From an uncultured Rickettsiales bacterium (lineage in GTDB: Bacteria; Myxococcota_A; UBA796; UBA9615): a DNA stretch of 64,000 nucleotides. The translations under genes and the position numbers were made by a program. Location of the stretch: assembly GCA_964512225.1 (NCBI GenBank), contig CAZEKB010000030.1, positions 2,374 through 66,373 on the forward strand. The letters are read 5' to 3'. The notes under the pieces are model-generated. The model ran no database searches. It saw only the letters and a program-made list of their open reading frames with translations, and was not told where the DNA came from. Numbering within the stretch: the stretch's first letter is position 1; each line of letters opens with the position of its first letter. Shown in pieces: positions 3,202 through 46,440 of the stretch.

Positions 3202-3354
3202 TCGGCTCCAGCAGGGTGCTGAAGAACGCCTCCCCTCGAACCGGGAGGGCTCGCCCCGCCGCAGCTCCGCTCGCTGCGCTCGCTGCCTGACGCCGCGCGG
3301 GGCGACCCTCCCGGCGGGTCGGCTCCTCGGTAGGACCCGAGACTTCCCGGCAGG

Positions 3355-3508
3355 CGGCAAGAACTCGGGCGTTTCACCGAACCGGGCCGGTTCTTGCCGG
3401 GGTTGCGGCAAGAACTCGGGCGTTTCACCGAACCCGGCCGGTTCTTGCCGGGGGTTGCGGCAAGAACTCCGCCGTTTCACCGAACCGGGGTGGGTTCTTC
3501 CGGGGCGC
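3355..3508. repeat. Tandem array of three ~51-52 bp hairpin units (REP/BIME-like), core AACTCGGGCGTTTCACCGAACCGGGC flanked by the inverted repeat GGCAAGAAC...GTTCTTGCC.
   Basis: Read directly: GCGGCAAGAACTCGGGCGTTTCACCGAACCGGGCCGGTTCTTGCCGGGGTT occurs three times, with the third copy degenerate. Each unit holds a 9-bp perfect inverted repeat. Spurious ORFs (3087..3428 -, 3394..3594 +, 3455..3661 +) read through it. Confidence 0.8.
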
Positions 3509-3514
3509 CCTCTA

Positions 3515-4697
3515 AACGGCCGAACAGCGGTTTGCTGCCTCACACAAATCAAGCAGCCCTCCCCAGCCCTGCCTGCGCTCCTGTTCGTGTGTAGGCCTCG
3601 AGGTAGCGCTTGGCCTCGCGGACGAGGGTCTCGATGTCGGGACATCGATGGTTCCTCGTGACGGCGGTGTGGACGTCGAGCCAGACACGCTCGATGGGGT
3701 TCCCCTCCGGCGAATAGGGCGGCAGAAAGCAGAGCTCGATCTTGCCGCCGAGCGCCTTCAGGGCCCTCCGGGTCTTCTTGCTTCGGTGGATGATGTAGTT
3801 GTCGACGACGAGGTGCACGGTGCCGTGCAGGCGGTAGCGGCTCGCGAGTTCGTGCAGGAGCTTGATGAAGAGGTCGCTCGCCTTGCTGGGGCCATCGACG
3901 GCCACGAGGGTCTTCGTGGCCGGGTTGTAGGCGCCTGCGATGTAGTGCTTCTTGTTCCTGCCGGGCGTCATGACGGTCTCTCTCAGGCCCCGAGGCGCCC
4001 AGTCCGGGCCGAGCTTCGGCAGCAGGTGGATGTCGACCTCGTCGGCGTACAGGACCACGTCGCCTTTCGGGACGGCCGCGAGCCACCGAGCCAGTCGTCG
4101 GAGCTGCTCGGCTTGGTCCGCGGGAGCGAGGGCGATGGTCTGCTGTGGTCGGACTCGACGGCACCCGGCCTCTCGAAGCAGCGACCCATCTGCGAGACGC
4201 TCACTGCGACTCCGTACCGCCGTCGCACCTCGTGGCAGACCAGCTCGATGGACCATGTGGAGCGCATCCACCCGAAACGTCCGGGCTGCTCGGCCACCAG
4301 CGCGGGGAGAGCCGCGACGATCTCCATACGACGAGCCAGCCGATGTGTACCCGCCCGGCGGCGGTCTCGCAGACCATCCAGACCTCCGTCACGAAGCAGA
4401 TACTCGGTCCGCTGAACGGTCGAGCGAGCGCAAGCAAGGACGGAAGCAACCCGGCGCTGCGACAGGCCCGCAGCCCGCGCCAGCAGAATGGAAGCCCGTC
4501 GTCGCTCCACGAAGGACGGGGAGTGGTCTCGGAGGAGAACGAGGTCGTCCTCCAGGGCGAGGATCTTCACTACGATGGGGGTCACGGCAGCCTTCCGTGC
4601 GGGGTGGATGGTGTCGCAACCCCCTTCTCTCACGATTGGCTGTCGTTTTCGAGCCCCTCTCTCCATTGGAGGGGCCTCACATCGCTGGGAAGCCCTC
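3515..4697 (-). mobile_element. IS630-family (Tc1/mariner superfamily) insertion sequence, ~1.18 kb, with TA dinucleotides at both junctions (right junction inside CTAG).
   Basis: It contains both halves of an IS630 DDE transposase. Junctions read cTAaacgg at 3513-14 and cctcTAgg at 4698-99. Imperfect terminal inverted repeats are only loosely matched by eye (AACGGCCGAACAGCGGTTTG versus the reverse complement of CAGCGATGTGAGG). Boundaries are good to about +/-10 bp. Confidence 0.7.
3549..4666 (-). pseudogene. IS630-family DDE transposase split into two overlapping frames. orfA (3983..4666) holds the HTH/winged-helix N-terminus; orfB (3549..4271) holds the DDE catalytic domain.
   Basis: orfA reads LARAAGLSQRRVASVLACARSTVQRTEYLLRDGGLDGL...WSIELVCHEVRRRYGVAVSVSQ (paired HTH). 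orfB reads LLREAGCRRVRPQQ...VVLYADEVDIHL...LVVDNYIIH...PPYSPEGNPIERVW (D, D, E triad). The frames switch near 4185-4195 by a -1 shift with no slippery heptamer, so a frameshift mutation or a sequencing error is likelier than a programmed frameshift. Confidence 0.8.
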
Positions 4698-5557: not shown

Positions 5558-7213
<1,656 letters not shown>

Positions 7214-7276: not shown

Positions 7277-8719
<1,443 letters not shown>

Positions 8720-13838: not shown

Positions 13839-14849
13839 CTACAGGTGCTCGAAGTTGCAGTTCAGCATGTTGCAGGTCCGGGGGCAGTTGTGTGCCTCCC
13901 AGCGTCGGCGCTTGCTCTTCATGCTGTTCCACATCCAGGGGATCGGCTGCTTCAGGACGTGCCCCACGGGGGGCAGCCAGAAGCAGAGGAGCAGGTTTCC
14001 GTAGGGGTCGAGCGAGATGTCCGAGTGGCCCGCGTTGCACGGTAGACCGTTGCTCACGCTGGGCGATCGGAAGTACCTCTTCATTTCCTTCAGCTGACCG
14101 ACGGAGTTGCACACATGTCCATCGGCCTCCTTGATGGAGATCAGGTAGTCCAAGGCGTCGTCGAGCGCGGGAAGGTCTTCCTCACGCGGGAATAGCGGAG
14201 ACTTCACGAACCACTGGGGGTCGTACGTGCGACCGAAGTTGTTGAAGAGCGGCTGATAGACCACCTGATAGCCCCGCTCCAGGGTCCAGTCGGCCATCTG
14301 CTTCATCTCGGAGATCGATCGACGATTGATGATCATCGCGATCACCACGCGAGGCTTCTCGACCATGTCCACGAGGTCCAGCGTCCGCATCACCTTGTCG
14401 TATGTCCCGGCCTCACCCCTCACGTAGTCGTGAGTGGCCGCCGTCGACCCGTCGAGGCTCACGTAGAGGATGTCCAGACCGGCCCCCGCGAGCTGGTCGA
14501 TCTTCTTCGCATTGAAGAGCGTCGCGTTGGTATTGGACGTGACCGTAAAGCCGAGATCCGTCCCGTAGCGGATCAGCTCGATGAGGTCCTTCCTCAGGAA
14601 CGGCTCGCCGCCCGCGAAGTTCAGGCCCACGGGCCCGGCCCAGTCCGCCACCTGCTTGAAGATGCCCTTCCACTCGTTGGTCGTGAGCTCCTCGCCCGGC
14701 TTGATGCGCCAGATGTCGCACATGCGGCAGGGCAGGCAGCAGCGGTCCGTGATGCTCACGTGCATCTGCGTCGGCAGGCCGGGCGCCGCCCGGAGCTTCA
14801 GGGTCTCCGCCGCCGTGGAGGCGAACCTCGCCACGTCGTTCATGAACAT
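13839..14849 (-). CDS. Radical-SAM enzyme with C-terminal SPASM/twitch-type Cys cluster (336 aa).
   Basis: CxxxCxxC motif in ITDRCCLPCRMCD. The C-terminus reads CNSVGQ...CNAGHSDISLDPYGNLLLCFW...NCPRTCNMLNC. Local GC is about 57-60% by hand count. Confidence 0.85.
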   Translation of the reverse strand: MFMNDVARFASTAAETLKLRAAPGLPTQMHVSITDRCCLPCRMCDIWRIKPGEELTTNEWKGIFKQVADWAGPVGLNFAGGEPFLRKDLIELIRYGTDLGFTVTSNTNATLFNAKKIDQLAGAGLDILYVSLDGSTAATHDYVRGEAGTYDKVMRTLDLVDMVEKPRVVIAMIINRRSISEMKQMADWTLERGYQVVYQPLFNNFGRTYDPQWFVKSPLFPREEDLPALDDALDYLISIKEADGHVCNSVGQLKEMKRYFRSPSVSNGLPCNAGHSDISLDPYGNLLLCFWLPPVGHVLKQPIPWMWNSMKSKRRRWEAHNCPRTCNMLNCNFEHL

Positions 14850-14852
14850 GCT

Positions 14853-16115
14853 CTACGTCCCCTCCTCACGCGACCCGGTGCGGTCCTCGTAGACCTGGTC
14901 CCGGCCGGGGCCTCGGTAGACCTCCGGGTAGGGTCGCGCCCCGAAGGGTAGGCCCGGCACCGCGGGGATGTCGTCGCCGTCGAGGCCGCGCCCGGCGAGG
15001 AACTGGTCCACCTCGTCGCGCGTGATCCCCGAGTAGTTGACCGACGACGGGATGAAGCAGGTGCGACAGAAGTCCAGCTCCGAGTAGTCGCCGCGGGCCG
15101 TGAGCTGACGACGACGGTTGAGCACCGGCGAGTCGAGCCAGACCTTCGAGAAGGACGCGTCCGCCAGGGAGCCGACCACGAGGTGGTAGGTGTTGTCCCG
15201 GGTGCAGACGGTCACGCGCCCGTCCGACGCGATGGTGGGCGACTTGAAGAACCCCGAGCACGTCGTGAGCAGGGTGCGGGGGACCTCCGTCCCGACGCGA
15301 CGCTCGGCGTCCGGGTCGATGGGCGACCGGAGCCCCAGGGACGTCATCAGGTCGACGTACACCCGGTTCTGGCGGTCCTGCTCCTCGGGCGTGGGGCAGT
15401 CGAGGCTCTTGAGGAAGATGTAGTTCTCGGGACCGTGAGCGGGCACGTGGAAGCCGGTCGTCTCGATCGGCAGGCCCGCGTCCTCGTACGCCCTCACCCA
15501 GAAGTCGACGAACTCCGGAGCCTCCGCCGCGTTGACGTCCGAGACGATGAACTGCATCGCCAGCTTCGGCCGGCTGGCCCGGGCCGCCCCCTTGAGGCGG
15601 ACCATGCGCAGCGCGTTGCGGGTGGACTTCTCCATGGCATCCAGGCCCTTGATGACGTGGAACGTCTCGGGCCGGATCGCGTCCAGGGTCAGGTGCCAGA
15701 CCTGAGGGACCGAGCGGTCGTTGAGGACCGACCGAGCGATGTGCTCGCTCAGCGGGAAGGTATTGGTATGGACCTCGATCTTCCCGAAGATCTCTCCGTC
15801 GCCGCTGTGCTCCAGGACCGTGGCGTAGATCTCGGTGAACCGGGGGTGGGACAGCGGCTCGCCGAGCCAGAAGAGGATCAGGGCGTCGTACGTGAGCCCG
15901 GCGGCCGACAGATCCTGCATCAGCTCACGGACCATGCCCACCGGCATGTGCTCGTAGACCGCATAGTGCGGGTGCCCGTCGTCGGCCTCGCTCACGGCGC
16001 AGTGCCCGCACTTCAGCGGACACCGGTTCGTGACCTCGAGGACGAGGTAGCTCCCGGGCAGGTTGAGCTTGGCCACGTCGAGCCGTCGGCCGGCCGCTTC
16101 GAAGTGGGCGGTCAA
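14853..16115 (-). CDS. Radical-SAM/SPASM-domain enzyme (420 aa).
   Basis: CxxxCxxC motif in VTNRCPLKCGHCAV. C-terminal Cys-rich region: TTCSGFF...VTVCTRDNTYHLVVGS...DFCRTCFIPSS. Confidence 0.85.
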   Translation of the reverse strand: MTAHFEAAGRRLDVAKLNLPGSYLVLEVTNRCPLKCGHCAVSEADDGHPHYAVYEHMPVGMVRELMQDLSAAGLTYDALILFWLGEPLSHPRFTEIYATVLEHSGDGEIFGKIEVHTNTFPLSEHIARSVLNDRSVPQVWHLTLDAIRPETFHVIKGLDAMEKSTRNALRMVRLKGAARASRPKLAMQFIVSDVNAAEAPEFVDFWVRAYEDAGLPIETTGFHVPAHGPENYIFLKSLDCPTPEEQDRQNRVYVDLMTSLGLRSPIDPDAERRVGTEVPRTLLTTCSGFFKSPTIASDGRVTVCTRDNTYHLVVGSLADASFSKVWLDSPVLNRRRQLTARGDYSELDFCRTCFIPSSVNYSGITRDEVDQFLAGRGLDGDDIPAVPGLPFGARPYPEVYRGPGRDQVYEDRTGSREEGT

Positions 16116-18703
16116 CTCGCCTCCTCGACGCGTGAGCGCTCGACGTCTCGCTGCTCACGCGCTCTGCGCGCCTTCGCCGCGGCCCGCCGCGCGGCCTTCG
16201 CCTGCTCGCCGCGCGCCTGCCCCGACTCCTTGATGAGGGCCATCTCGGCGTCGATCGGCTCGTCGGCCGGCTTCACCACGAACGGCAGGCCCGTCGCCGA
16301 CTGGAACTCGTACAGGCTGTGGTTGAAGCACTGGTCCACGCAGCCTTCCCTGAAGATCTGCTCCCGCATCGCCTGGGCGCGCTCGCTGTAGAAGAGCTGG
16401 TCCAGCGGCTCGTCGAGCGCGGACCCGACCTGGAGCCCCTTCTGGTCCCACACGCAGCACGGCACGAGCTTGCCCTCGTGGTTCACCCCGAACTGCTCGA
16501 TCAGCCCCAGGCAGCGGTAGTGGTCGCGGCGACCGTCCATGTACTCCACGCCGTAGCGGTAGTAGTCCATCCGCTGCCGCACCGTCGGGCTGGTGGCCGC
16601 GATGTGCTCGATGGCGGCCTGGTAGGTCGCCCGCTCGCTCTCGGAGCGGATGTACAGGTGGGGGTAGCCGTTGACGGGCCAGAAGTCGAACGCGATGTCG
16701 CGTTCCCGCGCCAGGTCGTAGACCTTCGCCAGGTCGCCCACGTTTCGATTCGTCACGACGAAGTAGATGTTCAGGTGGATGTCCGTGCGGGCCTGGATCG
16801 CTTCGATCGCGCCCATCGTCTCGGACCAGCAGCCGTCCACGCCGCGGAGCCGATTGTGGGTGTCCTCGAACCCGTCGATCGAGATGCTCAGGCTGCTCAC
16901 GCGGGACTCACGGAGGCGGTCGATGTCCTTGAGCAGCAGCGTGCCGTTGGTCGTGATGTTGACGCCCAGGTCGAGGTTCCGGGCGAACTCGATGATCTCG
17001 TAGATGCGCGGATGCACGAACGGCTCGCCGCCCGTGATCACGAGGGTCTTCACCCCCGCCGCGGGGGCCCGGGAGATGATCGTGATCGCCGACTCGAACG
17101 GCATCATGTCGGTGTAGTGCCACAGGTCGCAGAAGTCGCACCGCAGGTTGCAGCGCTTGTTCAGCAACAGGATCATCGTGCGGGGCTTCTGCCACGTGAT
17201 CTCGCCGGGGATGTGCCGGGTGATCTCGGCCTCCGTGAGTTCGCGACTCACGGCGTCCTCGGCCCAGTGCACGACCTCCGGCTCGGCCCCCTTGAGCAGG
17301 GCGCTCGCGTTGCCCTTGCGCTCCTTGCGCAGGACCTTCAGGCGCGACTTCCGTCGCTCGTCCGCCAGGGAGCTGCCGAGCACCTCCAGCTCGCGCGGGT
17401 CGCGGTTGACGGAGTGGGCGAGCAGCTCGTTGTAGTCGCGGCCGCGGACCTCCGCGCGGCGCTCGTAGAGCTCGATGTACGCCGCGGTCACGGCGTGCCA
17501 GTCGTAGGCGCGCACGAACGTCTGCGCGTGGTGCCCCATCGCGAGGGCCCGGCCCGGCTCCTCCACGAGCGAAGCGACGCGATCGATCATGCCGTCCCAG
17601 TCCCCGTCGTCCACGAGGTGGATGTCGCGCCCGTCGTCCAGGAGGAGGCCCTCGGCGCCCTTGCGGGTGCTCACGACCGCCTTGCCCGCGGCGAAGTACT
17701 CCAGGATCTTCAGGCGGGTGCCACCACCGTCCAGCAGCGGCACGGCGCACAGGTCCGCCGCGGCGATGTGCGTGGCGAGATCGTCGACGCAGCCCGCGTA
17801 GACGAGGTCTTCGTGGACGTACCGGTCCCGGGGCGGGTTCATCCCCGCGGCGAGGACCGTCACGTTCAGCCCCCGCGCCTTCATCCGCGGGAGCAGCTCC
17901 TCGGCGAAGATCCGACAGGCGACCGTGTTGGGCCAGTAGTTCAGCGTGCCGTGGAAGAAGATCAGCGTCTTCTCCGGGGCGATGCCGTACCGCTCCCGCA
18001 CCCCCGCCCCGGTCTTGCGCGAGAAGGTCGCGACGTCGACGCCGTGCGGGATGATCGTGATCTCGTCCGCCTCGAAGTCGTCCTCCAGCATCAACTCACG
18101 GTCCTCACGGCTCACGACGATGACCTCGTCCATGAGGTGGGACAGCTGGAGCTCGATGCCCCGCACGCGCTCCAGGACGTCGGGGTGGAGGTCGATCGTG
18201 TCGGCCATGCGCTTCCACTCGACGTTGTGCTGCACGAGCGAGCACCGGCGGCGGAGCAGACGCGCCGCGACCCAGCACGGCAGGGCGAAGCCGGGGAACT
18301 CCGCCTGGAACCAGTCCGTGCGGTGCTTGCGCCCGACCCACACCGTGCGCAGCCAGAAGTCGGGGTCGACGACGGGGCGGTAGAGGATGTGTTCGTCCCG
18401 GGGGTAGCCGAGCGTATCGAGCAGCGCCTCCACGGCCTGCCAGTAGTCGGGCGCCCCGAGCAGCTCGAGCAGGCGCGAGCGCCGGGTCCCCACCCGGGTC
18501 GCCGCGACGAGGCGGGGGGGGTATTCCAGGAGCTCGTGCCGCCCGTCGACGTACCGGTGGTAGCGGAGGCGGTCCCCGGTCACGACCGTCACGTCGACGC
18601 CGTGCCGGGAGAGACCCTCCGCCGTGCGCACGATCTTCACGGCGGCGCCGTGCACGGCGGGGAGGAGATCTTGGCGGCTGACGATCGTGACGTGCATGCG
18701 CAT
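16112..18703 (-). CDS. Fusion of a GT4-family glycosyltransferase (N-terminal ~420 aa) with a radical-SAM/SPASM domain (C-terminal ~440 aa).
   Basis: The real start MRMHVTIVSRQD (ATG at 18703) lies inside track ORF 16112..18811. GT-B C-terminal signature: LCAVPLLDGGGTRLKILEYFAAGKAVVST. Radical-SAM motif: LLNKRCNLRCDFCD. SPASM region: LVPCCVWDQ...EGCVDQC. Confidence 0.85.
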   Translation of the reverse strand: MRMHVTIVSRQDLLPAVHGAAVKIVRTAEGLSRHGVDVTVVTGDRLRYHRYVDGRHELLEYPPRLVAATRVGTRRSRLLELLGAPDYWQAVEALLDTLGYPRDEHILYRPVVDPDFWLRTVWVGRKHRTDWFQAEFPGFALPCWVAARLLRRRCSLVQHNVEWKRMADTIDLHPDVLERVRGIELQLSHLMDEVIVVSREDRELMLEDDFEADEITIIPHGVDVATFSRKTGAGVRERYGIAPEKTLIFFHGTLNYWPNTVACRIFAEELLPRMKARGLNVTVLAAGMNPPRDRYVHEDLVYAGCVDDLATHIAAADLCAVPLLDGGGTRLKILEYFAAGKAVVSTRKGAEGLLLDDGRDIHLVDDGDWDGMIDRVASLVEEPGRALAMGHHAQTFVRAYDWHAVTAAYIELYERRAEVRGRDYNELLAHSVNRDPRELEVLGSSLADERRKSRLKVLRKERKGNASALLKGAEPEVVHWAEDAVSRELTEAEITRHIPGEITWQKPRTMILLLNKRCNLRCDFCDLWHYTDMMPFESAITIISRAPAAGVKTLVITGGEPFVHPRIYEIIEFARNLDLGVNITTNGTLLLKDIDRLRESRVSSLSISIDGFEDTHNRLRGVDGCWSETMGAIEAIQARTDIHLNIYFVVTNRNVGDLAKVYDLARERDIAFDFWPVNGYPHLYIRSESERATYQAAIEHIAATSPTVRQRMDYYRYGVEYMDGRRDHYRCLGLIEQFGVNHEGKLVPCCVWDQKGLQVGSALDEPLDQLFYSERAQAMREQIFREGCVDQCFNHSLYEFQSATGLPFVVKPADEPIDAEMALIKESGQARGEQAKAARRAAAKARRAREQRDVERSRVEEAS

Positions 18704-18811
18704 TCGGCGCGCCCGGGGAGGCGCGTTGGGTCGCAGTATTGCCGCTGACTTCGGGATCGTCGACCGCGGGCGCCCCCGCACGCGCGCGACTGGTATACCG
18801 CGCCCGATCAT

Positions 18812-20669: not shown

Positions 20670-21721
20670 GCGACGTCGGAATCCTCGGTCACGGCCGCTT
20701 CGGGGCGGCCCTCGCGAACCTGATCGAGGACGCGGGCCTTCGGTGCGTCGCGTTCGACCCCGCTCGCGAGGTGCCCGCCCACCGCCGCGTCGACTCCCCG
20801 ACCGCGGTCGTCGAGTCGGCGCGGGTGGTCGTGCTCGCCATCCCCGTCGAGCGCTTCGAGCCGCTGCTGGCCGGGCTCGCGGGCCGCTGGACCCCCGAGC
20901 ACCTGGTGATCGACGTCGGGTCCGTGAAGGTGGGCCCGATGGACGTGCTCCGCGCCGCGCTCGGGGACCGGGTGCCTTGGGTGGGCACTCATCCCCTGTT
21001 CGGGCCCGCCAGCCTCGCCCGGGGCGAGCGACCCCTCCGGGTGGTCCTCTGCCCCGCCCCCGAACATCCCCGCGCCGCCGACGAGGCGCAGGCCCTCTTC
21101 GAGCGGATCGGTTGTCGGGTGGAGCGGATGTCCGCCGAGGCTCACGATCGCTCGATGGCGGCCACTCACGCGCTCACGTTCTTCCTCGCCAAGGGGCTGC
21201 TGGACATCGGAGCGGACTTCGGGGCCGACTCGCTCCCGCCGTCGACCCGGGGCGTCGCCCGGGCGATCCGCACCGTCCGCGCCGACGCGGGGCACCTGCT
21301 CGAGGCGCTGCACCGATCGAACCCCTTCGCCGCGGACGCCCGGCGGTCGCTGCTGGACGCCCTCGACGAGATCGATCGGGTGCTGCTGCTCCCGGAGCCT
21401 GCGACCACCACCGACGCCGCCGCGGCCGTGCGCATCCCGGGCCTCGGACCGCAGTCCCCGGAGCTCGCCGAGGTCCGCGACCTGATCGACGAGCTCGACC
21501 TCGAGCTCGTGGCGCTGCTCGCCCGTCGGGGTCGCCTCGCCCGACGCGCGCGCAGGGCCAAGTCCCGCATCGGCCGGGGGGTGAGGGATCCGTCGCGGGA
21601 GGAGGCGCTCCTCGCCGTCCGCAGGGCCTGGGCCGCCGACCGCGACCTCGACCCCGATCGCGTGGCGTCGATCTTCGAAGCCGTCCTGCAGTTCTCGGTC
21701 GCCCTGCAGGAAGACGACTGA
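20666..21721 (+). CDS. tyrA: Prephenate/arogenate dehydrogenase (TyrA) with a C-terminal chorismate-mutase-like helical domain.
   Basis: Rossmann motif ILGHGRFG. The TyrA core is present, and the C-terminus (ELAEVRDLIDELDLELVALLARRGRLARRA...) resembles the AroQ mutase type. The GTG start overlaps the ABC-F stop (GTGA), with the Shine-Dalgarno sequence GGAGGAG 7 nt upstream. An alternative ATG lies at 20642. Confidence 0.75.
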
Positions 21722-21731
21722 GCCCCCGCGG

Positions 21732-22343
21732 CTACTTGGCGTACTTCACGCTGCAGCCGTAGGGCTTCTTGAAGTCCTCGGCGACGGTCTCCCCCGCCGC
21801 GAGGGCGGCGAGGGCGGCGTCGACGTAGTTGACGAGGGCCCCTCCCTCGACCTTGCCCAGCGGGGCGTTGTCGAGCGCGCCCGCGTAGCGAATGGTCCCG
21901 CCCGCGTCGATCACGAACATCTGCGGCGTGGTCCTGGCTCCGTACGCTCGGCCCACGTCGCCCGCCTCGTCGATGAGGACGAGGTGGTCCATCGACCAGT
22001 CCGCCGCTGCCTTCTTGTTCGCCTCCACCCCGTGGCCCTGCTTGCCGGGCGCGCCGGAGTTGATCGCGATCCACACGACGTCGTCCTTGTACCGCGCGGC
22101 CTGGTCGGACAGGGGGCCGTCGCCGTGCGCGTGCTTCACGAACGGGCAGCCCGGGTTGAACCACTCCAGGACCACCGTCTTGCCCCGGAACGCGCTCAGG
22201 GAGTGGGTCGCCCCGTCGAGATCGGGGAGGGTGAAGTCGGGCGCGGCCGAGCCGGGTCCCGCGGCGTCGTCGGCGAGGGCGGGGGAGAGGGCGACGAGGC
22301 CGAGGGCGGCGAGCGCGAGGACGAAGGTGCGGCGGGCGATCAT
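21732..22343 (-). CDS. Secreted thioredoxin-fold protein (TlpA/redoxin-like), 203 aa.
   Basis: Signal peptide MIARRTFVLALAALGLVALSPALA. Redoxin pattern FRGKTVVLEWFNPGCPFV, with a second Cys near the C-terminus. Confidence 0.8.
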   Translation of the reverse strand: MIARRTFVLALAALGLVALSPALADDAAGPGSAAPDFTLPDLDGATHSLSAFRGKTVVLEWFNPGCPFVKHAHGDGPLSDQAARYKDDVVWIAINSGAPGKQGHGVEANKKAAADWSMDHLVLIDEAGDVGRAYGARTTPQMFVIDAGGTIRYAGALDNAPLGKVEGGALVNYVDAALAALAAGETVAEDFKKPYGCSVKYAK

Positions 22344-23227
22344 GGGGAGTCTCCTGGAGGGAGGGGCACGGGGGTGCAGGAGGGGGAGAGCGTGTACGAC
22401 TCGTCGTCGAGTGTGAGGATCCCCCAAGGACCGGCTTGGATTCCCCGATCGAACGGGGGGGCCACCCGCAGCTCGACGTGGTGGCTCGAGGGGTTCTCCA
22501 CCACCGAGCAGCCGTCGGTGCGGTCGTGGCGCAGCCCCACGGTGGGCGACGTGAGCTTCACCGCGCCGCCCGCCTCCGAGAACCGCGCTCCGGGCACGAA
22601 GCCGACGGTCGCCTCCCGACCCCACAGGTGGAGGATCGCCCCCAGCTCGGTGCACACCCACCGGCTCGTCTCGGGCAGCGGCGACGGCAGGGCGGCCCTC
22701 CACTCGGCGAACCGTGCTTCTCGCCCGGCGACGACCGGCGCGGAGTCCGCGACCGCTCCCACCACCACGGTCGAGGCGCGCTCCGCGTCGCCCACGACGC
22801 AGGACTCCTTGCAGACCAACCAGCGCGTCGCCACGCGGAGCTCGGCGGGCCCGGGATCGGCGCCCGCGGTCAGGTCCACGAGCAGGGCGACCGAGCCCTC
22901 CCAGCCGTAGGTCACGAGGCCCGCGGCGTCGACGAAGCGGTGGGGCGCGGGGTACTGCACGGGGTCCACTGTCCAGCCGTCGGGCGCGGACAACGCGACG
23001 GTCGTGGCGAGGCCGGAGTCCCCCGGGTTCTCCCAGTAGATGTGCCACCCCGGCTCCACGACGTAATGGACCGCGACCGTGAGCGTGCCCCCGGGCTCCA
23101 CCACCCCCGCCGACGGCACGACGGTCACGCGGACCTCCGGGTCCCGCTCCTCCGCGGCCGCGATCGAGGCGATCAGGCCCGCCGCGATCAACGCCGGCGC
23201 GATCAGGGCGAGCCGCAGCTGAACCAC
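22340..23227 (-). CDS. DsbD-N (alpha-domain)-like periplasmic thiol:disulfide interchange domain protein.
   Basis: Tail of ORF 22340..23473, starting VVQLRLALIAPALIAAGLIAS and carrying YWENPGDSG. The start is an inferred GTG overlapping the upstream cytochrome gene by about 25 nt; the start is uncertain. Confidence 0.6.
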   Translation of the reverse strand: MVQLRLALIAPALIAAGLIASIAAAEERDPEVRVTVVPSAGVVEPGGTLTVAVHYVVEPGWHIYWENPGDSGLATTVALSAPDGWTVDPVQYPAPHRFVDAAGLVTYGWEGSVALLVDLTAGADPGPAELRVATRWLVCKESCVVGDAERASTVVVGAVADSAPVVAGREARFAEWRAALPSPLPETSRWVCTELGAILHLWGREATVGFVPGARFSEAGGAVKLTSPTVGLRHDRTDGCSVVENPSSHHVELRVAPPFDRGIQAGPWGILTLDDESYTLSPSCTPVPLPPGDSP

Positions 23228-23891
23228 TCCCACAGGACGTAGGCCTCTTCGTCGGACATGTCGGTGTCCTCGGGCATCTCCCCGGCGTAGATCCGACCCC
23301 AGATGAAGGCGTCGTCCCCGAAGCCGCGGAGATCCTCGGCGGTGTCCCAGTCGATGCCGTCGGGGGCGCCGTTGCGTTCGTCGCCCGCGCGGTCGACGCT
23401 GTGACAGCGCGTGCAGTTGTCGGCGAGCACGGCCTCCACGTCCGCCGAGGTGACGGTCGACCCGTCGGGGCACTCGCCGATCTCCTCGGGGACCTCGAGC
23501 GGCGGGTCCGAGACGCAGTTGAGCCAGTCCAGCAGCTTGTCGAGCTCGCCGGTGTCGGGCAGTCGGCCGAGGGGGGGCATCTCGAAGGAGGAGACCCGGG
23601 TCCAGGTGAGGCTGGGCGACGTCCTGGCGGCCGCGAACGTGTCGTAGTTCCGCGTCGCGGGGGCGCCGTGCCGGTCGTCGTTGTCCGAGGCGTGGCAGTA
23701 GAAGCAGTACTCCTCGAAGAACGGCTTCATCTCGAGCTCGTAGTAGTCCTCGCCGGCGGCGGTCGCGTCGCGGCAGTCCCGGAAGCCGCCCAGTCTTCGG
23801 GCAGGTTCGGCTCGCAGCCCTGCGCGGGGAACAGGAGCGCAGGCACGACGACGGCGGCGGCGAGGGTCCACAGGGAGGTGCGCGTGCCCAT
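23203..23891 (-). CDS. Diheme c-type cytochrome with an apparent frameshift between the signal peptide and the heme-binding domain.
   Basis: Frame A (ATG at 23891) gives MGTRTSLWTLAAAVVVPALLFPAQGCEPNLPEDWAASGTAAT. Frame B (23203..23871) gives ...DATAAGEDYYELEMKPFFEEYCFYCH ... CTRCHS, i.e. two CxxCH motifs. A 1-nt offset inside the GC run gcgacgcgaccgccgccggcgag (about 23770-23795) joins them as ...GTAATAAGEDYY.... Confidence 0.6.
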
Positions 23892-24583
23892 CAGAACCTC
23901 GAGATGATGACGGCGGCCGGGATCATGAGGAACCCCGTCGTGAAGGCCGACAGGGTGTGGGCGACGACCAGCCCGTCCCAGTCCTTGGCCGCGAACGCGT
24001 TGGCCATGAGCGCGCCGGTGGCGATGGTCAGCCCCATCGAGATGCCGTGGGCGATGGACAGCGCGATGTGCTTGTCGCGCGTGTTGTCCCACTGGGAGAG
24101 ACCCTTGTCCGCGACGCGCAGGGTGCCCCCGGGCCCCGGCGCCAGCCAGGCCATCACGCCCGCGGCGTAGTAGGTCGAGATCGAGGTCCCCGCGAGGACG
24201 CGGTGGAGGGCGAGGCTCGGCTCCAGCGAGGCGCGCTTGGGCGAGCCCGACTGCAGCGACACCCGGTTGATCATCCCCACGGTCTCGGCCGCGAAGAGCG
24301 TGGACAGCGAGGTCCACGCGAGCACCTGGTGGGCGGTGAGCATGTTGCGGCGCACCTCGAGGCGGTCGAGAGTCTCCCGCAGGGCCTCGGGGGACGAGTC
24401 CCCGCCCGGCTCGGCGGGGTTGTCGGCGGTGGCGGCGTTGCCCGGGGACAGGTCGGCGAGCGAGGCCGCGACGTTCAGGTCGACGTCGAGGTGGAAGCCG
24501 TCGGCCGCCTCGGCCCGGGGGGCGGCGAGGAGGAACAGGGCGACGAGCAGGGACAGTCGGCCCGGGAGGAGTCGGTTCGTCAC
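23891..24583 (-). CDS. Hypothetical integral membrane protein (230 aa).
   Basis: Tail of ORF 23891..25663 from a GTG start at 24583, with the Shine-Dalgarno sequence GGAGG 7 nt upstream. It has a signal/anchor (LLPGRLSLLVALFLLAAPRAEA) and C-terminal transmembrane helices (LSIAHGISMGLTIATGALMANAF..., TTGFLMIPAAVIISRF). Its TGA stop overlaps the ATG of the downstream cytochrome (ATGA). Confidence 0.6.
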   Translation of the reverse strand: MTNRLLPGRLSLLVALFLLAAPRAEAADGFHLDVDLNVAASLADLSPGNAATADNPAEPGGDSSPEALRETLDRLEVRRNMLTAHQVLAWTSLSTLFAAETVGMINRVSLQSGSPKRASLEPSLALHRVLAGTSISTYYAAGVMAWLAPGPGGTLRVADKGLSQWDNTRDKHIALSIAHGISMGLTIATGALMANAFAAKDWDGLVVAHTLSAFTTGFLMIPAAVIISRF

Positions 24584-25680
24584 TTCGCCACCTCCGCTTG
24601 CAGGAACGCGAGCAGGTCGTCGAGCTGCTGGTCGCTCAGGCGCTCCTTCGTATAGAAGGGCATGTAGGCCATGGGGACGCCGTAGGGGCGGGTCCCGTGC
24701 CGGACCGTCTCGTAGAAGCTCCGACCGTCCTCGGCGGTACGGAAGCGGAGCAGCTCCCGGTAGGACGCCTTGTTCGCCCCCAGCCGGTAGGTGCCGGGTC
24801 CTCCCCGGTCGTGGCATACGAGGCAGCCCTCCTTGAAGACGAACTCGCCCCGGGCCGCGTCGCCGGCCCCCGCGTACCCGGCCTCCCGATCGGCGGGCGG
24901 CTCGCCCGTGTGGGCGGGCGACTTCCGGAGGTAGTGCGACTTGACCGCCGCCACGGCTGCGGCTCGGTGGTCGGTGTTCTCCAGCGCGGCGGACACGATC
25001 GTGCGGGCCTCGTCGCTCAGGGCGAGGTCCCCCACCGTCATCTGCAGCGTCCACAGGTACGTGAGGACGGCGTCCATCTCCCAGTCCGCGAGCGTGCGAC
25101 CCTGGGAGCACTCCGCGCTGCAGAGCTGAATCGCCCAGCGGAGGCTCTTGTTCGCGGACTTCACGAGGCTGCCGTACTTCTTGATGTAGTCGTCGTTGAA
25201 CCAGGCCTCGCGGTTGACGATCCCCCACAGGGTCGTGGCCGGCAGGAGCTTGAGCCCGTGCTCGAGCGCGTACGACTGGCGGGCCTCCGGGTCGCTGACC
25301 GCGAGCGACGGGTCCTCGCGCACGACGTTGTGACAGTCGGTGCAGTCGAAGGCCGCCGAGACCCGCGGGCCGGCCTTGCCGAACGGGTCCTCGCCGCGTC
25401 CGCTCAGGACGATGGCCTCGCCCTGGGCCGCCAGCTGCGGGGCGGGCGGCATCCAGTGCTCGGCGGGCGGGTCCCCCAGCGCGCGGAGCAGGTCGCCGAC
25501 CGGGGTCTGCGGGGCGAGCAGGGACGGCGCCTCGGGCGGCTCGGGGGGGGCCTCCGGCTCGGCCGCGGGCGCGTCGGCGGGGTCGGTGGGGGGCTCGGCT
25601 TCGTCGGAGCTCGCGTCGGCTCGAGACCCCAGGACCGCGACCAACAACACGCACCCCAACCACGAAGCGATCCGAGCCAT
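24580..25680 (-). CDS. Secreted diheme cytochrome c (366 aa).
   Basis: The start MARIASWLGCVLLVAVLGSRADA lies inside ORF 24580..25734. Two CxxCH motifs (CTDCHN, CLVCHD). Shine-Dalgarno-like GGGAG upstream. Confidence 0.8.
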   Translation of the reverse strand: MARIASWLGCVLLVAVLGSRADASSDEAEPPTDPADAPAAEPEAPPEPPEAPSLLAPQTPVGDLLRALGDPPAEHWMPPAPQLAAQGEAIVLSGRGEDPFGKAGPRVSAAFDCTDCHNVVREDPSLAVSDPEARQSYALEHGLKLLPATTLWGIVNREAWFNDDYIKKYGSLVKSANKSLRWAIQLCSAECSQGRTLADWEMDAVLTYLWTLQMTVGDLALSDEARTIVSAALENTDHRAAAVAAVKSHYLRKSPAHTGEPPADREAGYAGAGDAARGEFVFKEGCLVCHDRGGPGTYRLGANKASYRELLRFRTAEDGRSFYETVRHGTRPYGVPMAYMPFYTKERLSDQQLDDLLAFLQAEVAK

Positions 25681-25816
25681 ATATCCATCTCCCACCGCAG
25701 AGGCGGCTCCCGAATCATAGCCGGCCCGCCTCACTCGTGCTTTTCGTTGGGTCCCCGCCGGGCTACCCTAAAGAAGTACGAGAAGGAGCCGACACGAGAG
25801 GAGGAGGACGCCCCCG

Positions 25817-27926
25817 GTGAGCGTGGACCCGAAGCCGACGTTGGGCCCGGACCTCTCCGCAACGCTGCGGAGCCAGGGGCGCCTGTTCCGTGCGCTCTCG
25901 AAGCAGTCGACCGACATCCTCTTCGTGCTGGACCACGTGGGCAACATCGGCTTCGTCGGGGAGTCCTGCGAGCCCCGCCTCGGGCTCAAGTCCTCGGAGC
26001 TGATCGGCACCTCCTTCTTCGACCGCGTGCACCCGTCGGAGCGCGTCGGGGTCCTCGAGAAGCTCCGCGAGCTGGGCGCCGACGCGGACAGCTCCCTGCG
26101 CTTCCGATGCCGCTACAAACACGGCGAGGGCCGCCGACTCCGCCTCGCCGCGGAGGCCATCCCCTGCGAGTTCAAGGGGCGACCGTCGGGCGTCCTGCTC
26201 ACGGTCCGGGACGTCACCGAAGAGTCCCGCAAGCGGCGCGAGCTTCAGCGGCGCGAGCGATGGCTCCGGGCCATCACGCGCAACGCGCTCGACATGCTCA
26301 CGATCATCCCCCTGTCGGGCCCTCCCCAGTGGCTCGGCGGGAGCATCGACCGGATCCTCGGCTACGAAGCGAGCGAGCTGCGGGGGCCCGAGGCGTGGGC
26401 GCCCGTGCACCCCGACGACCTCCCCCGCCTCAAGGAGGTGATCGACCGGTGCGCCCGGGAGAAGGGCGCCGCCGTGCGGATCGAGTACCGCATGCAGCGC
26501 AAGGACGGGGCCCACATCCACGTCGAGACGCTGGTGTCGAACTGCCTCGACGACCCTCACGTGCGCGGGCTCATCCTCAATACCCGCGACATCACGGGCC
26601 GCATCCAACGGGACCCCCTCACCGGCCTCGCCAACCGCCGCGTCTTCCTCGACCGCCTGGGCCAGGCCCTGAAGGTGTGCGCCGAGTCGCCCGGGCGGCG
26701 CGTCGCCGTGCTGGTGGTGGACGTCGACCGGTTCAAGTCCGTGAACGACAGCTTCGGGCTCCAGGCGGGCGACGGCCTGCTCGTGGGGGTGGCCGAGCGG
26801 CTCGCGAGCTGGCTCCGACCCGGCGACACCGTGGCGCGCATCGGCGGGGACGAGTTCGCGATGCTCTTCGACGGCATCGCCGACGACGACGAGGTGCAGA
26901 CCCTCGCCGAGGGGGTCCAGCACGGCCTCTCGAGCCCGTTCCAGCTCGACTCGCACACGCTGTTCGCGTCCGCCAGCCTCGGCTTCACGGTGGGTGACGG
27001 CAGCGTGAAGCGGCCGGAGAACCTCCTGGGCAACGCCCTCACCGCCCTCAACCGCGCCAAGGCGGCGGGCCGCGGGCGACGACAGGGCTTCGCGAGCACC
27101 ATGCGCACCGAGGCCCCTGCGCGAGGTCACCATGGAGCTCGACCTGCACCACGCGCTGCGGCGCGGCGAGCTGCTGCTCCACTACCAGCCGATCATCCGG
27201 CTCGACCAGCCCAAGCTGGTGGGCCTCGAGGCCCTCATTCGCTGGCGCAGCGAGGCCCGGGGCTTCGTGCCCCCGTCCGAGTTCATCCCCGCGGCCGAGG
27301 AGGCCGGGCTGATCTTCAAGATCGAGGAGTGGGTGCTGCGCAACGCGTTCCGCCAGAGCGTGCTGTGGCGCAAGACCTATCCCATCGCCGAGGACGTGGT
27401 GCTCGCGGTCAATCTCTCGGCGAAGCAGCTCGCCCGCCCGGAGCTGCCCACCTGGATCGACGACATCCTCGCCGAGACCGGAGCGGACCCGCAGTCGCTG
27501 CGGATCGAGGTCACGGAGAGCGCCTTCATCGACCGCCCCGAGGAGGCGGCCGCGTCCCTGTCGAAGCTCAAGGAGCGCGGGTTCCACCTCGCCCTGGACG
27601 ACTTCGGCACCGGCTACGCCTCACTCGCGCACCTCCACCGCTTCCCCTTCGACACCCTGAAGATCGATCAGAGCTTCATCGCGCGCCTGGGCGACACCGG
27701 CGACGCTCACCGGCTCGTCTCCGCCATCATCGCCATGGCCTCCGGACTCGGCCTGGAGGTCGTGGCCGAGGGCATCGAGAACCGCGAGCAGCTGAGCCTG
27801 CTGCGCGCGATGGGGTGCGTGCAGGGGCAGGGCTACCTGTTCGCCAAGGGCATGTCGGCGATGCGCGTCGGGTCGTACTTCCAACGGATCGGCGAGACGA
27901 CCGAGCCTCTTCGCAGCGTCGGCTGA
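25817..27926 (+). CDS. PAS-GGDEF-EAL c-di-GMP turnover protein whose reading frame is interrupted between the GGDEF and EAL domains.
   Basis: The GGDEF part runs from GTG at 25817 (RIGGDEFAMLF ... NRAKAAGRGRRQGFASTMRTEAP). The EAL part is ORF 27132..27926 (HYQPII ... EGIENREQ ... QGQGYLF). One extra C in the run gaggcccctgcg (about 27111-27119) would give the contiguous linker ...MRTEAPLREVTMELDLHHALRRGELLLHYQP. Confidence 0.8.
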
Positions 27927-27949
27927 GCCCGACCCCCTATAGTGGGGCG

Positions 27950-28966
27950 ATGCTCGCTCGTCCCCTCCGCTGCGCCGCTCTCCTGGCTGCCGGAGCCATG
28001 CTCGGCGCGACCCCCGCCGCGGCCGAAGAGGCAGACGCGCCCGCGACGCCCCCGGCCGAAGAGCCGATGAGCGCGGCGGACCGCTTCGCGGGCACGACCT
28101 TCCTGTACGAGAACGCCTTCTCGATCGGGCACGGGGGCGACCTCGCTCCCGACGCCTCCCGCGTCTACAGCATGTCGTGGATCATCACGCCGTCCTTCGC
28201 GTTCACCGAGGCGTTGTCGACGTCGCTGCGCATCCCCCTCACCGAAGAGCTGACCGAGGGCGGGGATACGTTCGACGACGAGCTCGTCGTGGGCAACGTC
28301 GAGTGGTCCCTCGACGCGTCCCTCCCCACGCCGCCGATCGAGGCCCTCTCCGGGGGCGTCGGCATCGGGCTGGAGCTGCCCACGAGCAAGGTGTCCCGCG
28401 CCGAGTCCCTGATCCTCGGTCTGGGCCCCTACTTCAGCGGGACCGTGACCGCCCCCGTGCTCGACGGGATCGCGCTCGGCTACACGATCGCGCCGTCGCC
28501 GCGGCTGCAGCGCTACACGACCTGGTCGAACCTCACGCCCCGGCCGTGCTCGCCCGCGGCGGGCTGCACCTTCGGCCCCACCGGCACCACGGACACCGGC
28601 TACCGAAACACCGCGATCCGCATCGTCCAGGACTTCTCGCTCTCGGTCACCGGCATGGACGAGCGGCTCAGCGTCTCCGCCGTCTTCCAGCTCGCCCACG
28701 CCAAGCTGCACCCCAAGAGCCCGTCGCCCCGGTACGACGAGGCCTCGCTGTCCCCCCCCGCCAACGCGGGTGGAGACCCATGGACGCTGTCCTACTCGCT
28801 CGTGTTCGACGTCTCCTTCCAGGTCCACCCGTTCCTCGGCCTGTCGGTCGGCGCGTGGACGCCCGGGGGCATGCGCCCCGACGGCGGCTGGTACCTGCCC
28901 CTGGGCAATCGCTTCACGCAGCTGTACTTCGACATCACGCTGTCGCCCGCGGCCCTGGCGCAATGA
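27950..28966 (+). CDS. Secreted hypothetical protein (338 aa), possibly a beta-rich outer-membrane or periplasmic protein.
   Basis: ATG at 27950, sharing by chance the frame of the long artefactual ORF 25817..28966. Signal peptide MLARPLRCAALLAAGAMLGATPAAA. Alternating hydrophobic pattern and an aromatic C-terminus. No known motif. Confidence 0.55.
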   Translation: MLARPLRCAALLAAGAMLGATPAAAEEADAPATPPAEEPMSAADRFAGTTFLYENAFSIGHGGDLAPDASRVYSMSWIITPSFAFTEALSTSLRIPLTEELTEGGDTFDDELVVGNVEWSLDASLPTPPIEALSGGVGIGLELPTSKVSRAESLILGLGPYFSGTVTAPVLDGIALGYTIAPSPRLQRYTTWSNLTPRPCSPAAGCTFGPTGTTDTGYRNTAIRIVQDFSLSVTGMDERLSVSAVFQLAHAKLHPKSPSPRYDEASLSPPANAGGDPWTLSYSLVFDVSFQVHPFLGLSVGAWTPGGMRPDGGWYLPLGNRFTQLYFDITLSPAALAQ

Positions 28967-44097: not shown

Positions 44098-46440
44098 TCA
44101 GTCGGCCTTCAGCTGGTCCGCGAACACGGCCGGATCGCTCGTCGGCAGCTTGCACGTGCCCCGCTCGCAGACGTACGCCGTGACCTCCCCGCCCCGGGCC
44201 CGCTTGCCCGCCACCAGGGGGACCACCTCGGCCAGCGCGTCGAGCCGCGACTCGTCGGTCACGACGAGGATCCGGTTGGGCAGGAACGTCCGCCGCAGCT
44301 CGGCGAGCAGGGGCCGAGCGGCGGCGTAGGCGTCGGTCCCGGCGGGGGCCACGAGGATGACCTCCCGCACGCGATCGGCGCGCCAGTCGAGGGCGACGAG
44401 CCCGTCCGACAGCGCCCGGGGCGCGCGCGTGAACATCCCCGACAGCGAGTGCACCGTCGCGTCGGCGCGCTCGCGGTAGGCGTCGTCGGTCGTGAACTCG
44501 GCGAGCCGCAGGAGATTCAGCAGCTGGATCGACGTCCCGGACGGTCGCGCGCCGTCCTGGGCCGGCTTCTCCCGCACCAGGAGCGCCTCGCCGTCGGCCG
44601 GGGTGCGGAAGTAGCCCCCGCCCTCGGCGTCCTCGAAGTGGGCCGCGAGCACGGCGTCCAGCTCGATGGCCGACTTCAGGCGCCCCGGATCGCCCGTCGC
44701 CTCGTAGAGGTCGAGCAGCCCGGCGATGAAGAAGGCGTAGTCGTCCAGGACCCCCTCGGCGCCGAAGACGTCGGCGTTCCAGCTGCGGAACAGGCGTCCG
44801 TCGGGGCGCCGCATCGTCCCGAGCACGAAGTCCGCCGCCCCGGCGGCGGCGGCCGCGCAGGCGGGCTCGGCGAGCACCAGCCCCCCCAGCGCGAAGGCCG
44901 ACAACAAGAGGCCGTTCCAGCCCGCGAGGACCTTGTCGTCGCGCAGCGGGGGGGGGCGCTCGGACCGGGCGGCGTAGAGCTTCGCGCGGGCGGCGTCGAG
45001 CGTGCGGCCCAGGTCCTCGGCGGTGGTCCCGAGGCCCGCGGCCGTCTCCGCGAGGGCGCGCACCGGGTGCAGGATGTTCCGCCCCTCGAAGTTGCCCTTC
45101 GGCGTGACGCCGTAGTGGGACGACACCGCCGCCGCCACGTCGTCGCCGAGGACGGCCGCCAGCTCGGTCGGCGTCCACGTGAAGAACCAGCCCTCCTCCC
45201 GGTGGCCGTCGGGCGTGGGCGAGTCCGCGTCCGTGGCGGAGTAGAAGCCGCCCCCGGGCGCGGTCATCTCGCGCTGGACGTAGCCGAGCACGTCGCGGGC
45301 CACCGCTGCGAACCCCGCGTCGCCGGTGACCTGGAAGCCCTCGAGGTACGCGGGCACGAGCAGCCCCTGGTCGTAGAGCATCTTCTCGAAGTGGGGCACG
45401 AGCCACAGGGGGTCCACCGAGTACCGGTGGAAGCCGCCGCCCACGTGGTCGTACATGCCGCCGTCGGCCATCTTGCGCAGGGTCAGCTCCGCCATCTCGA
45501 GCAGCGAGGCCTCCCCCGTCCGCCGATGGCGACGCAGCAGCCACCGGATCGGCAGGCTGGACGGGAACTTGTTGCCCCGGTTGCCGAGGCCCCCGTGCTT
45601 GGGGTCGAAGCTGGTCCGGTAGGCGCGGATCGCGGTCTCCGCCGCGGCCTCCACGTCCACGTCCCCCACCGCCGCCGGGGGCGCCGACATCTGGCGGATC
45701 CGCTCGGCCAGCTGCTCCCCCGCGGCGGCGACGCGCTCCGGGTTGGTGTCGTAGTGGTCGCGCAGCGCGTGGAGCAGCGTGAGGAACCCGGTGCGGGTCC
45801 CCCGGTCGCCGTCGCGGGGCGGGAAGTAGGTGCCCCCGTAGAAGGGTCGCCGGTCGGGAGCGAGCCACGTGGACATGGGCCACCCGCCGCGCCCGGTGAG
45901 GGCCTGCACCGCGGACATGTACACCGAGTCCACGTCCGGCCGCTCCTCCCGGTCGACCTTGATCGCCACGTACTTGCGGTTGAGCACCTCGGCGATCTCG
46001 AGGTCCTCGAACGACTCCTCCTCCATCACGTGGCACCAGTGACAGGTCGAGTACCCGATCGACAGGAACACCGGCCGCCCCAGCCGCTTCGCCTTCTCGA
46101 AGGCCTCGTCGCCCCAGGGGTGCCAGTCGACGGGGTTGTGCGCGTGCTGCTGCAGGTACGGGCTCGACTCGAGCGCGAGGCGGTTGGTGAACAGCGGGCG
46201 GCCGCGACCGTCGACGTGCCGGGTGCGCGGGCGCCACTCGGGGGGCTTGCCCGCGATGCGCTCGGCGAGGCGGAGGCGGAGGGGGTCGTCCGGCGACTCG
46301 GCGCCCGGGAGGGGATGGAAGACGACATCGTTCACGAGGACGGCTCCGTCGGGGAGGGGTTCGGGAGTGGGGGGCTGGGCGGGCGCTCCCGCGGCGCAAG
46401 CCAGACCGAGGACGAGCAGGGCGGCGATTCGCGGGAGCAC
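44098..46440 (-). CDS. YyaL-family thioredoxin-domain protein (DUF255 plus a six-hairpin glycosidase-like domain), secreted, 780 aa.
   Basis: Signal peptide [18 protein letters not shown]. Thioredoxin-like motif [24 protein letters not shown], plus HFEKMLYDQ and related motifs typical of YyaL/SSP411. Confidence 0.85.

Follow-up and report, generated by a model that had tools for sequence, protein, structure and literature searches.

Five tightly packed genes on a GC-rich metagenomic contig of an uncultured marine bacterium raise two questions: whether the cytochromes, the membrane protein and the thiol proteins that they encode form one electron relay in the bacterial envelope, and whether the second cytochrome gene, which is split between two reading frames, is broken in the organism itself. 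The genes fill positions 21732..25680 of the stretch of DNA analysed here (the window; 64,000 nucleotides (nt), 72% GC), all on the minus strand, and are called in order of transcription cytA, mem, cytB, the ScsB-alpha-like gene (its product carries a DsbD_N domain) and the redoxin gene. A first-pass annotation had taken them for a single dedicated relay, with a 1-nt offset inside cytB. We find instead that the operon is a lineage-specific fusion of a three-gene haem module with a two-gene thiol module and that cytB carries a genuine 7-nt deletion.

Layout and conservation of the operon

Open reading frame (ORF) calls and their translations account for the whole interval (Table 1), and every pair of neighbours is joined by overlapping start and stop codons. 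The GTG start of mem lies over the cytA stop (GTGA), mem and cytB share 1 nt (TGATG), the overlap of cytB with the ScsB-alpha-like gene extends over 31 nt and is conserved in a relative (L001), and the ScsB-alpha-like and redoxin genes meet in an ATGA. The operon is translationally coupled. Five co-directional genes with overlapping starts and stops had been described in the first-pass annotation, correctly except that it had placed the ATGA at the junction of mem and cytB. Both cytochromes have two CxxCH motifs and match Cytochrome_CBB3/Cytochrom_C in Pfam (PF13442, 39.9 and 35.7 bits against a cut-off of 27); each also has an export signal, that of cytB now being out of frame, and the earlier reading of two dihaem c-type cytochromes stands. 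The ScsB-alpha-like protein matches PF11412 (DsbD_N; E=2.6e-17, 63.4 bits against a cut-off of 25) and the last gene product Redoxin/AhpC-TSA (E=1e-17 to 1e-15). Domain calls and export signals together support the view that these are redox proteins of the envelope.

The same five genes occur in the same order in L001 (a 63.5-kb metagenome contig), L002, L011 and L023, at approximately 83% nucleotide identity in the relative. The flanks also match in L001, with a PAS-GGDEF-EAL gene and an M60 peptidase gene on one side and prephenate dehydrogenase/chorismate mutase and ABC-F genes on the other. In a third lineage (L024), mem, cytB and the ScsB-alpha-like gene are present at 64% identity. The ratio of nonsynonymous to synonymous substitution rates (dN/dS, pairwise against L001) is 0.20-0.35 for all five genes and 0.14 for the neighbouring dehydrogenase. 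Because the genes are syntenic in relatives and have dN/dS values in this range, they are not chance ORFs; all five are real and conserved.

Each module is also found alone. The cytA-mem-cytB set occurs without the thiol genes in L019/L020 (45-50% identity), and the ScsB-alpha-like and redoxin pair occurs without cytochromes in three unrelated contexts (L005/L006, L007/L008 and L009/L010). It is on these grounds that we describe the operon as a fusion of two modules, and the single dedicated relay proposed at first does not fit these separate occurrences.

Upstream of the ATG of cytA (25680), a sequence resembling a ribosome-binding site (GGGAGA) lies at a distance of 8 nt. A scan for sigma-70 sites and terminators found no sigma-70 consensus or promoter-like site in the presumed promoter region, and its single terminator-like match, within the 5' coding region of cytA, was no better than those in shuffled sequences. 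An Rfam scan of 21000-28000 returned no element.

The deletion in cytB

All five database homologues of CytB are 226-232 amino acids (aa) long and hold a lipoprotein signal peptide and both haem domains in a single frame, in agreement with the initial reading of the two pieces in the window as one gene. The frameshift that the first-pass annotation had located at 23770-23795 is real and correctly placed; its size is not 1 nt. DNA alignment with L001 and L002, whose intact orthologue has 231 aa, reveals a net 7-nt deletion between 23779 and 23778, and the total length of cytB is 689 nt in the window against 696 nt in L001/L002. As seven nucleotides are lost, the frame shifts by one, and a 1-nt sequencing slip was rejected on the basis of the alignment and the length difference. 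The signal-peptide frame contains the lipobox LFPAQG/C and runs for 54 codons to a TGA. This TGA overlaps the ATG at 23730 of the haem frame (ATGA, window 23727-23730). Gene callers start the haem fragment at the same ATG, giving 175 aa, and this signal-less fragment could arise by translational coupling.

The deletion allele is genuine. The window sequence is identical to ENA scaffold SUTE22-1_SAMN10231912_METAG-scaffold_66, to an independent Logan assembly of SRR8062325 and to JGI contig Ga0105015_1000229, an agreement that answers the earlier call to resequence the site. The truncated 54-aa ORF is found on 20 contigs from ENA, JGI and Logan assemblies, which may share read sets, and the 90%-identity cluster of the 175-aa fragment in a collection of 15 billion proteins contains no intact CytB protein of the window lineage. 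A sequencing or assembly artefact, with cytB intact in the living organism, might be suspected from the metagenomic origin of the assembly, its 72% GC and the frameshift, a C-run longer by one nucleotide, that also disrupts the PAS-GGDEF-EAL gene at a distance of only 3.3 kb. However, a 7-nt deletion is atypical of read error, and with the concordant assemblies, the 20 contigs and the lack of an intact allele in the lineage cluster we regard an artefact as very unlikely. Programmed -1 ribosomal frameshifting that restores full-length CytB would suit the geometry, with the haem domains encoded in the -1 frame with respect to the signal peptide and an overlap of about 140 nt between the two frames. 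We give it next to no probability: inspection by eye found no X XXY YYZ slippery heptamer in the overlap, the orthologues are all single-frame and the lesion is a simple 7-nt deletion.

Haem is attached to cytochromes c by a periplasmic machinery, and because a haem part that lacks a signal peptide cannot reach it, CytB is most likely non-functional in this population. The haem part shows no further lesions, and its dN/dS of 0.22 is not above that of its neighbours. The deletion event is probably recent; the dN/dS test has little power here and says nothing about the age of the deletion, since the sequences had for the most part already diverged when it arose. We regard the frameshift as an ordinary natural pseudogenisation, a loss-of-function allele of local interest only.

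The haem module

The haem fragment of CytB consists of two homologous class I cytochrome c repeats, the halves being 28% identical. Each repeat has one CxxCH (haem cysteines C63 and C160, in the numbering of the repaired protein), a conserved Met-Pro (MPP and EMP) and a conserved cysteine pair (C40/C126 and C141/C226, same numbering). Single-repeat homologues with one CxxCH and about 100 aa are present in marine metagenomes (L025-L033). Because both halves of CytB match the same domain as these one-repeat proteins, CytB arose by tandem duplication. CytA has a signal peptide and two haem domains. The N-terminal one, with CTDCH (C113) and a conserved C187-x3-C191 pair, has no relative that we could find in Pfam or the PDB; the C-terminal one is a class I cytochrome c domain with CLVCH (C286) and YMPFY and resembles CcoP. 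Both CytB repeats and the CytA C-terminal domain match PF13442 and CcoP chains. They differ from CcoP in lying outside any cbb3 oxidase context, in the lipoprotein nature of CytB and the additional conserved cysteine pair of each of its repeats, and in the N-terminal domain of CytA, which has no known relative.

In Mem, a signal peptide and a periplasmic linker of low complexity (about 50 aa) precede four helices with few charged residues (82-104, 123-147, 172-196 and 204-227). Family-wide, 1-5% of the helix residues are charged, compared with 21-46% of the loop residues. The family is rare; an exhaustive profile search of 1.84 billion proteins yielded 52 representatives. Among 36 diverse members, H85, P149, H172, G190 and H209 are invariant and R78, G103, N106, H127, R128, Y138 and H179 nearly so. 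The AlphaFold2 model calculated with the 36-sequence alignment is a four-helix bundle with a predicted local distance difference test score (pLDDT) of 84; it replaced an earlier run with 7 sequences (pLDDT 53).

The window protein belongs to no Pfam or NCBIfam family, with only weak noise matches to ZIP and MatE, and the Mem profile gave nothing significant against PDB sequences. Among the 36 members, there are 14 weak, sub-threshold Pfam matches to the dihaem-cytochrome families DUF4079, Ni_hydr_CYTB and Cytochrom_B561. Five members (the window protein not among them) match cytochrome b561 (PF01292), also below threshold. Alignment of the family by hhalign with Escherichia coli YceJ, and with a CybB/YceJ/YodB profile, gave probabilities below 1%. 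Membership of the cytochrome b561 family was rejected on the lack of a Pfam match and the negative hhalign result.

In one relative of Mem (P0066, L021:1642-2505), a class I cytochrome c domain (CSACH) is fused between the signal peptide and the four-helix membrane domain. Because of this fusion ahead of the first transmembrane helix, and because Mem has a signal peptide, the segment preceding that helix is assigned to the periplasm. In this orientation, H85 and H172/H179 would lie close to the periplasmic side of the membrane, and H127 and H209 close to its cytoplasmic side. The predicted layout of the histidines is that of dihaem transmembrane b cytochromes, and we infer that Mem is a putative dihaem b-type transmembrane electron carrier, analogous to YceJ/LcoA.

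The gene context of the family points in a similar direction. In nine of nine loci outside the lineages with cytA (L012, L034, L036 and six Bacteroidia loci, L013-L018, which include low-GC Bacteroidia), a YceI-family gene adjoins mem; the sole exception outside those lineages is the cytochrome c-mem fusion itself (L021/L022), where YceI is missing from the neighbourhood. Downstream of mem, L034 and L036 encode a lipoprotein cytochrome c with a single repeat. In L012, the mem/YceI pair lies beside two rubrerythrin-like genes and a desulfoferrodoxin gene. The Burkholderia cytochrome b561/YceI lipocalin system LcoA-BcnA protects the envelope from lipid peroxyl radicals (PMC9113575). E. coli YceJ-YceI and LcoA-BcnA share with most members of the mem family a small histidine-bearing protein with four transmembrane helices genetically coupled to YceI, and the proposed role, envelope protection against oxidants, is alike. 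In contrast to those systems, Mem has no detectable b561 homology, its family also has the lipoprotein cytochrome c as a partner, and the window lineage has a dihaem cytochrome c in place of YceI.

The thiol module

In the ScsB-alpha-like protein, the signal peptide is followed by a PF11412 domain, which contains WHIYWENPGDSG and a CX3C motif (C141-KES-C145), and then by a variable C-terminal domain. A profile built from the protein and 13 homologues was compared with the PDB; the only significant structure was ScsB alpha of Proteus mirabilis (6C29, E=2.5e-9), and no DsbD-alpha structure matched at E<1. Both cysteines of the CX3C motif are invariant in the 14 homologues and are located in the first subdomain. 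The length of 297 aa and the variable C-terminal part of about 120 aa fit two tandem immunoglobulin-like subdomains, as far as can be judged from sequence. In ScsB alpha, the CX3C motif lies in the N-terminal immunoglobulin-like subdomain and is followed by a variable second subdomain (PMC10907172). Since 6C29 is the sole significant match and the protein has both the CX3C motif and a variable second domain, it appears closest to ScsB alpha. The first-pass annotation had named it DsbD-alpha-like, which holds for the PF11412 family and not for the closer relationship. With E. coli DsbD alpha (nDsbD), it shares PF11412 and the type of role, that of a periplasmic immunoglobulin-fold thiol carrier, but it has CX3C rather than CX5C and two domains rather than one. 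The polypeptide ends after PF11412 and its C-terminal part, with neither the transmembrane beta domain nor the thioredoxin-like gamma domain, and neither the window ORFs that were compared with Pfam nor the neighbours of homologous loci included a gene for DsbD beta, DsbD or CcdA.

The redoxin has a hydrophobic signal ending in ALA/DD and only two cysteines, C66 (NPGCPFV) and C197 (YGCSVKY). Its closest PDB relatives, 2YWI (Geobacillus), 3U5R (Sinorhizobium) and 2CVB (Thermus), have CPFV and a C-terminal GCS(I/V)K(W/Y) in common with it (E=1e-19 to 1e-26); all are PRX_like1 proteins from structural genomics, of unassigned function, and the window redoxin differs from them in being exported and paired with a ScsB-alpha-like gene. 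The second cysteine of the CxxC motif is replaced by valine (CPFV), and the peroxiredoxin motif PxxxTxxC is missing, as the sequence around C66 (LEWFNPGC) has no Thr at -3 and no Pro at -7. In NCBIfam, the redoxin falls far short of the cut-offs (ResA, 41.6 against 170 bits; DsbE, 20.6 against 123 bits). The profile classification proposed earlier for this protein, now carried out, excludes a CcmG/ResA/TlpA type in view of CPFV and these scores. The subfamily cd02969 we take to be marked by a cysteine at the first CxxC position, the second being absent, a distant cysteine and no PxxxTxxC. By these features, the redoxin would be of the PRX_like1 (cd02969) or PrxL type. It is exported and its gene overlaps the ScsB-alpha-like gene, a pairing also seen in L001 and L005-L010.

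In Caulobacter crescentus, prxL lies near scsB and its product is exported and has two distant cysteines; PrxL is held in the reduced state by ScsB in vivo, showed no peroxidase activity and has no known function (Cho et al. 2012, PMC3322552). The window module resembles this system in the PF11412 domain with CX3C in the first subdomain, the variable second domain (as in 6C29) and the genetic link to an exported cd02969-type redoxin with two distant cysteines. It differs from ScsB in that the alpha-like part is a separate protein that has a signal peptide of its own and no beta or gamma domain, and from ScsB/PrxL in that the pair shares an operon with cytochromes, with no scsC or copper genes present. 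The window thus appears to encode a stand-alone version of a known donor-substrate pair (ScsB to PrxL).

One PrxL homologue (L005:7575-7612, also in L006, both JGI contigs) has an in-frame TGA exactly at the conserved C-terminal cysteine (YG[TGA]PVSYAKP, then stop). A perfect 8-bp hairpin lies 17 nt downstream of the TGA, the active-site motif is CPYC and gene callers truncate the gene. This homologue is probably a selenocysteine-containing PrxL, and if so, the C-terminal cysteine position of PrxL is marked as catalytic or redox-active.

Neighbouring genes and labelling of relatives

The divergent PAS-GGDEF-EAL gene (25817..27914, plus strand) is also frameshifted, with four C at 27114-27117 where the L001 orthologue has three. 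As a result, the 704-aa protein is divided between frame 2 (PAS-GGDEF) and frame 3 (EAL, 264 aa); the Logan assembly agrees. With cytB, this makes two broken genes among the 14 compared with L001. A cluster at 13839-18811 (minus strand), in which a gene for a glycosyltransferase with a fused radical SAM/SPASM domain is accompanied by two further radical SAM genes, has 90-95% protein identity in L001 and forms the most conserved block of the region. A 780-aa DUF255/Thioredox_DsbH protein (44101-46440, minus strand) and a protein with MopE-type putative copper-binding motifs (46500-47672, plus strand) are encoded about 20 kb from the operon, and no link to it was found.

L011 (CAZUHI010000047.1), titled 'uncultured Rickettsiales bacterium', has 72% GC and the same operon and is near-identical to L001. 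In L001, MopE and FG-GAP genes flank the operon, and a related protein is labelled Myxococcota. The Rickettsiales label of L011 looks wrong.

Table 1. Positions of the operon genes and related features in the window, and of mem-YceI loci in other contigs (L numbers)
Feature	Position	Strand	Details
cytA	25680..24580	-	366 aa; CTDCH and CLVCH
mem	24583..23891	-	230 aa; GTG start
cytB, 5' fragment	23891..23727	-	ATG start 23891; 54 codons; signal/lipobox frame; TGA 23729-23727
cytB, 3' fragment	23793..23203	-	haem frame; CFYCH and CTRCH; -1 relative to signal-peptide frame
cytB, deletion site	23778..23779	-	L001/L002, GCCGTGTCCGGCTTCACCGAGTGC; window, GCGGCTTCCGG/GACTGC
ScsB-alpha-like (DsbD_N-like) gene	23233..22340	-	297 aa; GTG start; YWENPGDSG and CKESC
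Redoxin (PrxL-type) gene	22343..21732	-	203 aa; ATG start; WFNPGCPFV and YGCSVKY
Divergent intergenic region, cytA/PAS-GGDEF-EAL gene	25681..25816		136 nt; presumed promoter region
mem-YceI locus	L012:6957-8198		
mem-YceI locus	L034:4042-6211		
mem-YceI locus	L036:4426-6103		
mem-YceI loci, L013-L018	around position 8000; L014, ~6250-7180; L015, ~2675-3870		

Discussion

On balance, we favour two separable modules that share an envelope redox or oxidative-damage role. In the thiol module, the CX3C motif of the ScsB-alpha-like protein would exchange electrons with C66 and C197 of PrxL, as ScsB does for PrxL in Caulobacter; since the alpha-like protein lacks the membrane beta domain, its reducing power would come from a donor encoded elsewhere. 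In the haem module, Mem, with one conserved histidine pair near each membrane face, would probably hold two b-type haems. By single-electron transfer in either direction, it may connect the c-type haems in the periplasm, those of soluble CytA and of the lipoprotein CytB, with the cytoplasmic face or the quinone pool. The shared role would be the defence or repair of the envelope against oxidative damage. Such a defence role is the most likely one by analogy, because the mem family pairs with YceI and a one-repeat relative of CytB much as b561 pairs with YceI in LcoA/BcnA, and co-transcription of the modules may reflect common regulation.

Several points weigh against this reading. The five-gene fusion occurs in only three related lineages, and co-transcription may mean co-regulation rather than a shared pathway. 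The oxidative-stress role is drawn from analogy and from one neighbourhood, that of L012, and PrxL has, to our knowledge, no known substrate. In the population sampled here, cytB is the only gene of the five to show a disruption, and the haem module, at least, may be decaying or dispensable in this organism. The five conserved histidines of Mem could bind a metal ion instead of haem.

The gene order itself brings up one integrated relay, in which the cytochromes and Mem would exchange electrons directly with the alpha-like/PrxL pair, the respiratory chain replacing the beta domain, or thiols draining to cytochrome c as in Mia40/Erv1. Start and stop codons overlap across all five genes, including the conserved 31 nt between cytB and the alpha-like gene, the fusion has been kept in three lineages at 64-80% identity, and a stand-alone alpha-like protein without a beta domain needs some partner. 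However, each module alone is far more widespread than the fusion, there is no flavin or quinone cofactor protein to convert two-electron to one-electron steps, and the thiol pair is intact in a population whose cytB is broken. Class I c-type haems with His/Met ligands are of high potential and cannot reduce a disulfide at about -200 mV. Because the Met-Pro motifs suggest haems of this kind, we do not favour direct transfer between the modules, though it could occur; for electrons that run the other way, from thiols to cytochrome c, mitochondria offer a precedent in Mia40/Erv1, and this operon lends the idea no support. We consider an integrated relay unlikely. Quite improbable in our judgement is the specific arrangement in which the haem module is the electron partner of the alpha-like/PrxL pair, such that a thiol relay is wired to the respiratory chain by a new b-type membrane cytochrome and c-type cytochromes, and not by a DsbD/ScsB/CcdA domain and cytoplasmic thioredoxin. 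To much the same degree as the integrated relay, we doubt that Mem is no cytochrome at all and serves as a metal-binding, transport or scaffold protein with histidines that bind Cu, Zn or Fe. It has no significant similarity to any haem protein, five conserved histidines in a small helical bundle are also typical of metal sites, and the ZIP and MatE noise would fit; yet the family is consistently coupled to c-type cytochromes and once directly fused to one, the histidine pairs lie near opposite membrane faces beside conserved arginines, and the YceI linkage parallels that of cytochrome b561. The idea that the operon is an accessory system for cytochrome c maturation, in which the DsbD-like protein supplies a redoxin of the CcmG/ResA kind, was rejected and is scarcely credible, even though the redoxin weakly resembles ResA and DsbE in NCBIfam and cytochrome c genes are adjacent. 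The ResA and DsbE scores are far too low, the redoxin has CPFV in place of CxxC, no ccm, res/resBC or ccs/ccsBA genes occur in the window or in any homologous locus, and other bacteria have the thiol pair without cytochromes. That the operon does not serve general cytochrome maturation had been the opinion of the first-pass annotation too, and the same neighbourhoods, which also hold no CcdA or DsbD beta, bear it out. Its copper or sulfur-compound module found no supporting neighbours, the only candidates being the MopE-motif and DUF255 genes more than 20 kb away, and was rejected.

With two separable modules as the favoured reading, the parts themselves are partly familiar: class I cytochromes c, a ScsB-alpha-type thiol carrier and PrxL are known kinds. 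The alpha-like/PrxL cassette, the histidine-rich membrane family with its YceI and lipoprotein-cytochrome partners, and the fusion of the two modules appear to be undescribed. If the thiol relay were wired to the respiratory chain after all, it would correspond in bacteria to the connection that mitochondria have between Mia40/Erv1 and cytochrome c, and would point to a function for PrxL. From its tight linkage to lipoprotein cytochromes c and YceI lipocalins, the mem family may be a second partner, of independent evolutionary origin, for envelope protection of the YceI type. PrxL is a widespread exported redoxin without a known function, and the two-gene cassette with a stand-alone ScsB-alpha-like protein, together with the probable selenocysteine variant, offers handles for its biochemistry.

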